Part shown: in pieces, positions 5,246-63,929 of the stretch | How the letters are laid out: each line of letters opens with the position of its first letter | How positions within the stretch are numbered: the stretch's first letter is position 1 | Source: Octopus sinensis | Lineage: Eukaryota | Assembly: GCF_006345805.1 (NCBI RefSeq) | Contig: NW_021835957.1 | Coordinates: 1-64,000 of the forward strand | Length of the DNA stretch: 64,000 bases | Direction: 5' to 3' | Position numbers and translations under genes: made by a program | The notes under the pieces: generated by a model | The model's database searches: none | The model's input: the letters and a program-made list of their open reading frames with translations, nothing else | Told to the model about the DNA's origin: nothing

Positions 5246-5872
5246 GCTGGTGGTAAAAATGACATCATAAAAGATAGTTTCAAACGAATACACAATCTTC
5301 TGTCAGCCTTCATTTAAGGGACATACAACATATCTTAAAGAATATTATTTACTTTATTTTTGCCTTTGAAAAGTTAGTAGCTATCTATACCTGTATTTCT
5401 TTAATCAGAAAGATGAATGAACAGTACAGGGTTGCTTATTGTTCAAAATGAATTGCTACGATGGGTATACATTTAATATACATTAAATATATAGAGAAAT
5501 TCAAAACTCTTAACATTTAATATAAAACCAGCTAACAAGCAAGGTCAGTTGAGCTTCTTAAATGCACCCCACTGCATTCATTAATCTCCTTTCACCAGTT
5601 TATAGCTACAGCTCAGTAATTACCATATAGCTGGTCACAAGCCCTGTAGCTTGTACTTTCAGCCCCAAAACCTCCAAGAAATTGAACTTGCTATATGTGG
5701 ACAACTGAACAGGATTACTGCTATTTTGTACCATATTTAGGACAATGAATATTCGCTCATCTTCTGGTAATGATACTTTTCTAAAATATATAGAAGATAT
5801 ATCAAAAGGTATTCACCACAAAATAGCAAAGAGATTATTAAAAATATACACAGGCATAATTGTAACAAAATA

Positions 5873-54714: not shown

Positions 54715-54823
54715 CTACCTTTTGCTATTACTGTGTCCCATTCCCCTAATGGGCATTTTGAAATTGGCAGCAGCCTGATACTGGAGTTGATATGCTAATG
54801 GGTGAATCTTGAAACCATATAAT
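54715..54823 (-). CDS. CSNK2B: Casein kinase II subunit beta, last coding exon
   Basis: Acceptor TTTTCAG|A; (R)[35 protein letters not shown]. Matches the CK2-beta C-terminus, with the invertebrate-type AAANFKMP. Confidence 0.95.
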
Positions 54824-56595: not shown

Positions 56596-56784
56596 CTTGG
56601 AATAAATTGGTTTGCAGGACGCTTAGGTCTGTATTCAGGATGGACCATGAACAACATGTGTGGGAAACCAGTGCCGAAATATGCTCCATCCGTGTGGTGA
56701 TGACGAGAAGACTTAGGTGTGTAAACATCTTGGCATTTTGGACAGTACAGCTTTACCATGGCTTCACCAGGTACATCATGAGAC
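56596..56784 (-). CDS. CSNK2B: Casein kinase II subunit beta exon (second zinc-finger CPKC pair); apparent 1-nt deletion near its 5' end
   Basis: Acceptor TTTAACAG|GT; [61 protein letters not shown]; donor AG|GTAGAG. It is 189 nt, one short of the 190 nt needed for a phase-1 G-L-S-D start. Confidence 0.95.
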
Positions 56785-59375
56785 CTGTTAAATATACAAG
56801 GGGAATAACTTGAATAGTTGCAGTTATCAGAACAAAACAATAACAACAAAATATATCTGCTTAGAAGGAAAAAATAAAACCCACAAGAATTAGAAAATAT
56901 TAACCCTTTTTTCTTTTAAGGCTCACTATCAGCATTACAATACTGATATTTTTAAAGACAACTCTGTAAAGTCACACACTGGTTTTCAGCAACATGTTTG
57001 ACAAAGTAAAATTTAAACTGACAATTTTATGAATAAACCAGTCAAAGACATTCCTACATTTAATACAACCACTAAACCCTTCAAATAAACTCCATGTGCC
57101 CTCAGTACAAGGTTTTCACTATGCATACAGGTTAACACATAAAACGATCCAGTTTCACTTAGCTGCTTCATTAAGCAAGTCAGCCTGCCAGTGGCCACTA
57201 GACAATGAATTATATCTCTTAGCCAGTCCCTCAGCAACATGACATGACAGCTAAGCAGTAAACACTCAGTTAAAAAATAACTAACATAGTCATAGTTAAT
57301 CTGACCATCCAAATTCAATGTTAAGAAATTTTTAATAGATTCACTTCCAATTTGTCTGAAACTACCTTCTTTCATTAATACATAAAAGGGACAGCGAATT
57401 GTTTGAGCAGTCATTTTTATATAACTATCACCTTCATTTTAACTTGAGTGTGTACACATGAAACAGAGCTCCTGCTGGGCTAAACCTATAATCCATTTGA
57501 AAAGTAGCTATTTTATTTACATTACTCATGAGCTGAGGAAAGGCATGAACATTTCAAGTTACCATTTCATGTTTTTGAAAATCGATCAGATTAATTAGAA
57601 AATATACTGAATACAAATGTATTAGGATATGCACAATATGAATCCTTGCAAATTAGTTTTTCTAATCAACGGGGGTTTTTTTTTTTTTTTTTTTTCTCAG
57701 AAGCTTAGTCAGAGAGGGAAATGTCAATGACCATTTTCGAAGCTCCCACTTCCAAGTGCTAAGTGATGTTGATAAACTGACGATGGACTGGTATTAGCTT
57801 CTAGGTAATTTTTTAAAGTTTAATTCTATAGCTGTCTATATTCTTATAAAGATAGAGGTTTATAATTATTCTATACTAGTTTAGATGCTGAATTAGAATT
57901 TCAATGCATTTGTTTCTGCAGTAAAGCAAGTTTTCTAAAGCTACATATCATATAATAATTATGTTCCAAACATAAAACAAAGAATATAAATTTTAAAAAT
58001 TGAGTTTAAGGAATGCATAAATCTATTTGCAAGTGTAGAAACCATTATCCTATATTTAGAATAAATGTTTATATCATTAATTATAGTTGCATAGCTACAA
58101 ATTGAGGGGAAAGAATAGTCAAATCAACCCCAGTAGTTAACAGGTGCATGTTTAAATCAACAGCAGCAGCAAGATTGTATAAGGATGGGACTAAATTCTG
58201 CAAGATTCATTTTGAAGGAATGTTATTGATGATAATAGAAATAAATTGAACTATTGCTTTTGATTCACCCTGGATTAAAATGCACTTCGTTTCATGCTTG
58301 AAACCAAATTTTCCAGAGACTTTAGCATGAGAAATTATTAATCATTCTTCACATACCTACACATTTCTATGGGCTGATGCAGCAAGAGTGGCCCAGGATC
58401 TTGCTAGCATGTAAAATTAAGAAGAGATTTCCCCAAGGGCTAAATCAACAGTAATAGCAATATGTCTAAAGTACATTTTGGATAATGTTTACCATAAGAA
58501 AGTAATATACTTTTACTAGTTTCAGTCATTTGACTACTTCAACTCACTTAAGGTCTAGAGTGACTCACAGCTATGGTAGAAAACAACCTGCCTAGCATGC
58601 CTTGTAGAAAATGAATATGGAAGGCGATGTGAACTTTTTATCCAGTTGGTCAGTGTTTTGATTAAGTAGACCTATAGTCAGAGGCATTCAACCATGATCA
58701 TACCAATGGCTTAAAGATATGTAGGACTTCATTATCCAATGTGTTCTTTTCTTTTCTAAGACAGTAAAGTGTAATTTTAGAGAAATTTGGCTGCTATATG
58801 CAGCAAATCAAACAATCATATAGGAGACCTCTCTGTTGAAACTGGTAGTACAAACAGGTCCATTCTATAAATGCATTTTTACAATTCTGTTGTCAATTTT
58901 TACTTAAGATATTTCCAACAGCATTTATTAACATTTGATAAAAAAAGTTTTTTTCAAATATTCACAAAAATTGAAGCAGTAAGCAGTAAGAAGTATTTGC
59001 TAATTTTTTGCATGCCCTAAATGAACTAAAGATTTAATTAAGATGTAAGAGTGGAGACAGTTAGTACCATAGTTGGGATTTATTGGGTGTAGAAAACAGG
59101 AATAAACCACAGAACTTAAAATGATGGTTTAGTAAGCAGAAATAAAATACAGCAATCATGTAGCCAAACCAAGCTAACAAACCCATTACAACTACCTAAC
59201 CATACTAAAATGGATGCAGCTGTATTCTTAGATATTCACTCCCAAAGCTAGATGAAGTTTTACTAACTGATGAAAAGATAATTAGGTTGATTGAGACAGA
59301 ATATCTTCAAAATTTAGACCCATAGTTAATTCTGATAAAAATTCATATTCAAACAACAGGAGATGATCATTTTAA

Positions 59376-59765: not shown

Positions 59766-59881
59766 CATTTGAGCTATGCCCCTATTTGTCATTATGTAAC
59801 GTGCATGGATCAAACCATACAGCATCTCAGCAGCTTGCTCAATCAAATCACTTTGGTTTGGATTATCTTCAAGTTCATCAT
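59766..59881 (-). CDS. CSNK2B: Casein kinase II subunit beta, canonical acidic-loop exon (116 nt)
   Basis: Acceptor TACAG|; (D)[38 protein letters not shown]; donor ATG|GTAAG. Confidence 0.97.
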
Positions 59882-61385
59882 CTGTATAAAGATAAATCAT
59901 TTACAGCCATCAACTCTCGCCCAACCAATTCCGATCAACAAACCCTGCAGAAACAATTACTGCGCACGGTGTGTGTGTGTGTGTCTGCGTATGTGTAATA
60001 AAAAATAAAACAGCAAAAAAAGAAAAAGGAATTTTGGAAACGGATGCAAACTTGCAAAATTCATATTTAAAAATAAATAAAAAAATAAACACCACTACAA
60101 AAATTATAACCAGAAATTGCGGAGGAGAGGAAAAACACACAACTCCTTTAATCATATCTAAATTCTCTAGATAAAAAAAGCCATGCCTCTAATGGCAATA
60201 AAATATATTGAATTGCAGTATATGACATTCAAGATTCTCAGGACTAAGTAATTGTCATGATTTTTCTAATCAGTTGATTAGTTATTAGTTAGTTCATGTA
60301 TTATCCATACTTCTTATATCTAGTTACTAAATCTACATCATCATAATCATTTTAACACCCTCCCTCTCTTTTCCATGCGTGCATGGAGTTTGAGGCAGGT
60401 GTTCTATAGCAGGACGGTCTGTTTGCCACTAATTCTCACCCATTTCCAAGCAAGACATGTTTTCACAGAATGACACTGCTTACATGATGGTGACATTCAT
60501 TTACAACCACCACACAATGTCAAGACAAGGACACATGTAATCACATTTCGAATCAATCATTCACTGTGGTCCTGTACTTTTGGTTTTCGTTTGCTTTCTT
60601 CCACAGTACGTAAATTTCCTAACTAAAGTTGGTCTGTTATCAAGATTGAAAAAAACCTTCAGTTGTTGCATCTTCAGTGCCTACATACAACAACACATAT
60701 ACATATATATACAATGGGTTTCCTTCAGTTTCCATCAACCAAATCCACTGATAAGGCTTCGGTTGGCTCAGAACACTTGCCTAAAGTGCCATGCAATGGG
60801 ACTGAATTCATAACCATGTGGTTGGGAAGCAAGTATTTAAAACTCAAATGGCTTTAAGATCTTGCAATTGGTCAGTTAATCAAACATCTTCAATTTTCTC
60901 AGACTATTAGAATCCTTTTGCTAAAGAAAATACATGTGTCATAGAAAATGCCACTTCCTTAAAATATGTATTTATCTGCTACATAATTCTGCAATATCCT
61001 AACTGCCAACTGTTGAAGCACCTATCACCTGCATCAATTTCATACATCTTGATTAATGGTTCTAACTAATCATAAGCTAGAGGCAAACCCTTCATCTCAG
61101 ATGCAATGCAATAAATTATATAAATATGAGACACTAAAACATATTCTATTTCAGTCTAAAGACAGCAGTAAAATTTAGCTGTCCTAAATATTATCTTCAG
61201 ATTTTCCCCCTCTCCTTCCATGAAACAATTATAAAGTCAGACAGAAAAACAAACACACTTGAAGGCAGTTCAAATTGAGAATGTCATATTATGCAAGGTG
61301 TGAGACAAGAACAACAAATTTCTTTTGAAAACAAAATGAACATTCCATCAGACAGGGTCATGGCAGGAAGCAGACAAATTCTTAC

Positions 61386-61499
61386 CATAGTACTGAGACC
61401 AGCATTTGTTTAGGATATATCTAGCATGAATCAGTCCATAAAGCATGTCAGCAGCCTGCTCCAGCTGGTCTTTATTAACGCAGTCATCCCCATCATCGT
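61386..61499 (-). CDS. CSNK2B: Duplicated, divergent CK2-beta acidic-loop exon (candidate mutually exclusive alternative exon; +1 nt in this sequence)
   Basis: Acceptor TTTTCTTGTGTTAG|; (D)[29 protein letters not shown], then TNAGLSTM if one A of an AAA run (plus-strand TTT at 61409-61411) is removed; donor ATG|GTAAG. Same splice phases as 59766-59881 after that correction. Confidence 0.8.
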
Positions 61500-63826: not shown

Positions 63827-63929
63827 CTGGCTCAAGGTCTAATATCATATCCAGAGCCTGCCTATAATGAGGGACTTGTTCATTGAGACCTGTTAAGTTG
63901 AATTTGTCTTGAATATAATCTTCATCAAC
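63827..63929 (-). CDS. CSNK2B: Casein kinase II subunit beta exon (103 nt); the upstream start exon lies beyond the window
   Basis: Acceptor TTGCAG|; [34 protein letters not shown]; donor CAG|GTAC. Confidence 0.97.

Follow-up and report, generated by a model that had tools for sequence, protein, structure and literature searches.

A tandem duplicate of the acidic-loop exon in the CK2-beta gene of Octopus sinensis, likely one half of a mutually exclusive exon pair

The regulation of the constitutively active kinase CK2 is a standing question, and its regulatory subunit CK2-beta is among the most invariant of animal proteins. The DNA analysed here (the window: positions 1 to 64,000, i.e. 64,000 nt, of contig NW_021835957.1 from Octopus sinensis assembly GCF_006345805.1) carries a CK2-beta gene in which the exon encoding the acidic loop, exon 4, seems to occur twice. 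A first-pass annotation made from the sequence alone had taken the additional copy for a hidden, mutually exclusive exon that rewrites the regulatory loop; the same copy reads out of frame by one extra A. Is this second copy a working exon of the gene, and if so, what would it change in the protein?

The gene lies on the minus strand of the window, with the exon order 3, A, B. The relevant features are as follows (window coordinates unless the main scaffold is named):

63827..63929, minus strand: exon 3, 103 nt, its donor joined to B or A
61386..61499, minus strand: exon 4A, the alternative copy, 114 nt in the window and 113 nt on the main scaffold
61409..61411, minus strand: AAA run with the extra base, a contig error absent from G000:C8 and from RNA contigs of X9, X10 and X14
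59882..61385, minus strand: A-B intron, 1,503 nt on the main scaffold
59766..59881, minus strand: exon 4B, the canonical copy, 116 nt, apparently the dominant form
57816..57817, no strand: gap site with about 330 nt missing from the window contig; exon 5 sits here on the main scaffold
C8:4304720-4304645 (main scaffold): exon 5, 76 nt, present in RNA contigs
56596..56784, minus strand: exon 6, one base short in the window contig, 190 nt on the main scaffold
54715..54823, minus strand: last coding exon, to the stop codon

Exon B corresponds to residues 60-97 of solved human CK2-beta chains (E 3e-19), from which the residue numbering used throughout is taken; only 2 of its 38 residues differ from the human chain. 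Exon 4A encodes residues 59-97 in human numbering, with a loop shorter by one residue and with Ala92. It lies 1.5 kb upstream of B in transcript sense, and both exons run from phase 1 to phase 0, have valid GT-AG ends and are of similar size (113/116 nt). Aligned with one 3-nt gap, A and B are identical at 69 of 113 bases, and the genome search retrieved the intact copy of A at E 9e-7, so the likeness is not due to chance. Comparing 37 codons from the 3' end, the residue is the same in 21 and differs in 16; among the 19 same-residue codons able to vary silently, 11 have done so, which bears out the earlier claim that the helix is conserved with synonymous codon differences. The A-containing model (P0003) matches PF01214, and the exons encoding the zinc finger and the C-terminal tail are common to both forms. 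The paralogous exon with good AG/GT sites proposed for this place is thus confirmed as a real duplicate, and its predicted peptide is obtained once the extra A is passed.

The extra A had been explained either as a consensus error or as recent pseudogenisation. The genome search found two copies of the exon pair, one on the window contig (C12428, 96 kb) and one on a 107-Mb scaffold (C8). On C8, exon A (G000:C8:4308517-4308405) is 113 nt long, open and free of the extra base, and RNA contigs of three runs (X9, X10 and X14) cover exon A, likewise with no inserted letter. The extra A is therefore an error of the window contig, and pseudogenisation of exon A by a +1 base is ruled out. Elsewhere, too, the gene is damaged in the window: exon 5 is lost to the gap of about 330 nt, exon 6 is one base short, and the contig carries its own garbled 'CK2-beta-like' RefSeq model (P0157). 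The two copies align over 13.1 kb at 99.1%; mismatches number 13 and indels 79, and a second octopus CK2-beta gene on C12428 is ruled out in favour of a redundant copy of C8. Single-nucleotide homopolymer changes make up 55 of the 79 indels, a pattern as would be expected of an unpolished long-read contig; the copy may be of haplotype origin. The case shows how a redundant, error-rich contig can give a good exon the look of a pseudo-exon.

Two side observations concern the assembly. Other apparent frameshifts in the window are suspect too, the contig being a redundant, indel-rich copy of G000:C8:4.29-4.32 Mb. Further, contig G000:C6303 (959 kb) holds two CK2-beta-like genes of about 50% identity (L103:2530-3227 and L104:2186-2956). 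The DNA around them is dense in genes, and its introns appear to be very short; the contig looks foreign to octopus and may derive from a parasite such as a dicyemid.

Transcription was examined in seven different runs of the 24 listed. All are coded runs with no tissue label, available as assembled contigs; none of the listed runs is recorded as RNA, and those used were guessed to be RNA, a guess supported by their GT-AG joints; such contigs show presence, not absence, and rare variants drop out of them. In three of four runs a contig passes from exon 3 through B into exon 5, with GT-AG sites at the joints, at depths of 279-532. The joint of exon 3 to A was found in one of the seven runs (X14, depth 2.1), where the loose end of the contig is the end of exon 3, set at the AG of A. 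Only 29 letters of exon 3 stand on its short side, below the tool's bridge bar of 31; with 31-letter words, a fork between A and B should leave an overlap of just this length. The contig continues into the next intron and thus represents partly spliced RNA. Of the two junctions that had been named for comparison, 63827-61499 was accordingly seen once at low depth and 63827-59881 abundantly. Exon A is spliced to exon 3, and it appears to be the minor form, with the B path dominant.

The downstream side of exon A is less directly covered. Contigs of X9 and X10 contain exon A together with 130-150 nt of upstream intron, at depths of 25 and 15 (other intronic contigs of X9: 2-8), and both break off two letters beyond the donor of A. 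AT is the start of exon 5 and of exon B alike, after which the two diverge; a fork between an A-B and an A-exon 5 path would explain the stop, a hint that both joints occur. The A-exon 5 joint was not among the joints listed in the seven runs of contigs, nor the A-B or exon 3-exon 5 joint among those listed in four. X11, X17 and X24 had no contig on exon A among the contigs listed, and X23 covered only three bases of it. Of the proposed mutually exclusive splicing, then, the entry into A was found in X14, and the exit from A into exon 5 was not among the joints listed; it is implied by the RefSeq model with A and by the contigs that break off at the A donor.

The frame logic can be followed on the main scaffold. 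Joining the C8 exons yields 221 residues via B and 220 residues via A. Neither 113 nor 116 nt is a multiple of three, and the frame shift predicted for messages with both exons or neither is borne out by early stops: with A and B together codon 109 is a stop and lies 343 nt ahead of the last junction, and with neither the stop is codon 60, 261 nt ahead of it. Nonsense-mediated decay is triggered by a stop more than roughly 50 nt upstream of the last junction, and both messages are therefore decay candidates.

The A form is not new to public annotation, contrary to the earlier impression of a hidden exon. RefSeq isoform X2 of Octopus sinensis (XP_036361111.1), an automatic gene model, has A in place of B and agrees residue for residue with our A form from the conserved start. 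The A path makes up the end of this model (P0003) exactly, and the B path the ends of P0009 and P0004 (isoforms X1 and X3). Isoform X2 is the only A carrier among 12 cluster members; among the entries listed for this cluster, those from O. bimaculoides, O. vulgaris and Argonauta all have B. The A form thus already exists in automatic annotation, with no described function there.

How could A and B be kept apart? Steric hindrance does not apply to an intron of 1,503 nt, and the A and B donors (gtaagaat and gtaagctt) are both of the major type by consensus, so both the short-intron and the mixed-spliceosome routes are ruled out. RNA pairing as exclusion device likewise left no sign when the splice-site windows were paired with the introns: all 40 shuffles were beaten in 1 of 12 tests, and in 1 of 6 controls as well, so that pairing at the splice sites was not above controls. 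Since none of these routes finds support, acceptor competition combined with decay is left. Competition between splice sites would favour B, and nonsense-mediated decay would clear messages with both exons or neither, as in the U2AF1 exons Ab and 3.

Two elements of the surrounding introns deserve mention on their own. Exon A is flanked by inverted 67-nt repeat arms of 76% identity (L010:3409-3475 and 5297-5363), which could loop A out; they are the longest pair listed, and both lie in repeats with high run cover. The intron stretch directly behind exon A (window about 61385-61290) is unchanged between C8 and the related record P0002 over 33 codons of frame, with differences farther out in the flank, and may contain a splicing regulatory element.

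What the exchange would mean for the protein depends on the segment concerned. The acidic loop comprises residues 55-70 and binds the basic substrate region of CK2-alpha in neighbouring tetramers; it also serves the binding of polyamines and polybasic peptides (PMC9608649, PMC8533506). Neutralising residues 55-58 is described as hyperactivating CK2 (PMC9608649), and Glu61 and Glu63 are named as residues of the polyamine site (PMC8533506). The exon border falls in codon 59, and hence residues 55-58 are common to both forms. Within residues 55-70 both forms have eight acidic residues, A gaining one Lys and losing one residue; over the whole exon, A and B each have eight acidic and two basic residues. 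Depending on where the gap is placed, Glu61 and Glu63 are either replaced by Asp and Gly in A or shifted by one. Positions 89 and 92, Leu and Ala in A, belong to the helical part. The variants Glu77Lys, Tyr80Asn, Arg86Cys and Met97Ile, which lie within exon 4, appear in a list of human neurodevelopmental disease variants (PMC9608649); exon A keeps Tyr80, Arg86 and Met97 and has Asp in place of Glu77.

The notion that exon A rewrites the regulatory loop is accordingly overstated. The loop is shortened by one residue, and its acidity is kept; the A loops of gastropods differ little from that of B, and the octopus A loop is strongly unlike the snail A loop. The difference that is conserved in A is thus loop length together with Ala92, not a loss of acidity. 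As the zinc finger and the C-terminal tail are encoded by shared exons, the A subunit is predicted still to dimerise and to bind CK2-alpha with an equally acidic loop. It would differ in the length and shape of the loop and in the surface around residue 92, and thereby in the docking of basic substrates, polyamines or neighbouring holoenzymes. We infer from the sequences that the A-specific loop length and Ala92 may alter the docking of basic ligands or holoenzyme polymers. Arg92 is given no role in the papers covered and has 0 occurrences in PMC9608649, and a structure predicted for the A form reached a mean pLDDT of 47, too low to draw on.

Conservation was examined in a related genomic frame (P0002) and in other molluscs. 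In P0002, exon A shows 0 residue changes in 38 and the flanking intron frame 14 in 100 (Fisher p 0.008), a test of constraint that is weakened by the first 33 codons of the intron frame behind exon A, which are also unchanged. A-type exons, for which a search in other molluscs had been recommended, occur in two gastropods and in one further record: the gene model of Pomacea canaliculata (P0001) has an A-like segment directly upstream of B, that of Nucella lapillus (P0051) shows the order exon 3, part of A, B, and an ENA frame (P0052) contains a complete A-like exon followed by M-V, consistent with a donor. In the P0001 and P0051 models A and B are fused within a single protein, which suggests that alternative exons went unrecognised in these annotations. 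Octopus and gastropod-type A exons share the loop one residue shorter than B, and Leu89 and Ala92 where these positions are covered. From the silent divergence between the copies, P0002 and the gastropod A exons, both copies appear to be conserved under selection.

In 92 metagenome loci found by a motif pattern that is unable to match Nucella-type A exons, 0 have two whole copies of exon 4 within one gene; the entire intron between exons 3 and 4 and a mollusc/annelid-type exon are present in 33 of the 92 loci, with seven distinct exon sequences. From the absence of a second whole exon 4 in these loci, the pair is not general among such animals. In one metagenome locus (L062:1528-1575) the 3' end of exon 4 is partially repeated just behind that exon. 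An apparent insect case in Timema (P0050) was discarded, its second copy being a repeat of exons 4-5 at the C-terminus.

Taken together, exon 4 of the octopus gene is present as two intact tandem copies, A of 113 nt and B of 116 nt, and we hold it to be quite probable that they form a mutually exclusive pair from which the canonical 221-residue subunit and a rarer one of 220 residues are made. Provided that exon A is functional, a single old origin of the duplication, common to octopus and gastropods, is probable, and an origin shared with snails is plausible from the sequences at hand. The strongest competitor concerns this history. Exon A might be functional and yet have arisen by independent duplications of exon 4 in octopus and in gastropods, with the shorter loop and Ala92 acquired by convergence. 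In a tree of 22 rows and 39 columns, the three gastropod-type A rows form one group (94/91) and octopus A stands apart from them; its branch is long and lies next to a ctenophore sequence (98/96), and its place is unresolved when the ctenophore row is removed; octopus A and gastropod A are grouped in 0 and 3% of bootstrap trees. The strong difference between the octopus and snail A loops points the same way, as does the lack of an A-type protein among the bivalve and limpet entries listed (partial lists of proteins, not genomes). Against this, the A-like exon occupies the same place upstream of B in Pomacea and Nucella, and it carries the same shortening by one residue, to 13 residues compared with 14 in 169 of 184 measured loops. 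Ala92 argues likewise: of 224 motif matches found in 227 proteins, 193 have Arg at position 92, 25 Ser, 4 Ala and 2 Asn, and all four Ala belong to A-type exons in this sample, which is biased by its queries. The tree test does not reject a single A clade (p-AU 0.147), nor do 39 columns show one. We regard independent duplication as rather unlikely, at a level that still merits attention.

A second alternative would make A mainly a poison exon, placed before B to shift the frame, send the message into decay and tune the dose of CK2-beta, with the A-only protein as a minor by-product. The stop at codon 109 of the A+B message, well ahead of the last junction, suits this idea, and the ends of the X9 and X10 contigs at the presumed fork are a hint towards it. 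A poison exon has no need of protein conservation, yet the helix residues of A are kept with silent changes, its protein is unchanged in P0002, and the gastropod A exons keep both frame and motif; we consider this explanation very improbable. That exon A is no more than a dead or drifting copy, its splicing mere noise, as the frameshifted window copy, the rarity of its junction in the seven runs examined and the long octopus branch might suggest, is the least probable of all, given that only the error-rich contig has the frameshift and breaks constitutive exons too, that A has diverged from B at 44 of 113 bases with no stop or frameshift in the main-scaffold copy, and that P0002 shows 0 of 38 compared with 14 of 100 changes.

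The favoured reading, a mutually exclusive pair, places the octopus gene in a known class, that of tandem-duplicated mutually exclusive exons with a splicing mechanism of known kind. The closest parallel is U2AF1, whose exons Ab and 3 are tandem duplicated and mutually exclusive, with stop codons and decay if both or neither are included (PMC5224494). Like the octopus pair, these are tandem homologous exons that are not multiples of three, and they give a minor and a major form of a conserved regulatory subunit, as A and B are likely to do. U2AF1 differs in being another gene in another phylum, with both exons 67 nt long, seven residues differing and its regulation worked out (PMC5224494); the octopus exons measure 113 and 116 nt, and 16 of the 37 compared codons differ in residue. 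Dscam-type pairing of docking site and selector, named in the same source, likewise serves a mutually exclusive choice among duplicated exons. Unlike in Dscam, splice-site pairing around A and B beat shuffled introns no more often than controls did.

Within CK2-beta itself, the nearest comparison is Drosophila. The fly gene is described as having five splice forms, alike in the core and distinct only at the C-terminal tail, and the fly paralogues beta-prime, SSL/beta-Tes and Stellate, all separate genes, as having an altered acidic micro-domain; such transcript diversity of CK2-beta is stated there to be unreported in other metazoans (PMC5374408). Fly and octopus are alike in that the regulatory subunit has been diversified, the acidic micro-domain differing among the fly paralogues; they are unlike in that the fly changes the acidic region through separate genes, as far as that account goes (PMC5374408), whereas the octopus swaps an internal core exon within one gene. 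No description of an internal exon swap in CK2-beta was found in the literature covered, mainly titles and abstract openings, and the terms sought had no occurrence in PMC9013439.

The acidic loop is central to both the polymer and the polyamine models of CK2, according to PMC8533506, and a natural alternative version of this segment in octopus and snails offers a ready protein pair for polymer and polyamine assays. Tentatively, and with doubt prevailing, the finding could mean that a switch in the splicing of the CK2-beta core goes back to the ancestor shared by cephalopods and gastropods and has been kept in molluscs. Such a switch would provide a second type of holoenzyme, with a shorter acidic loop and Ala92, in which self-inhibitory polymerisation and the response to polyamines and basic substrates may be altered, and which may serve certain kinds of cell, for instance neurons or germ cells.
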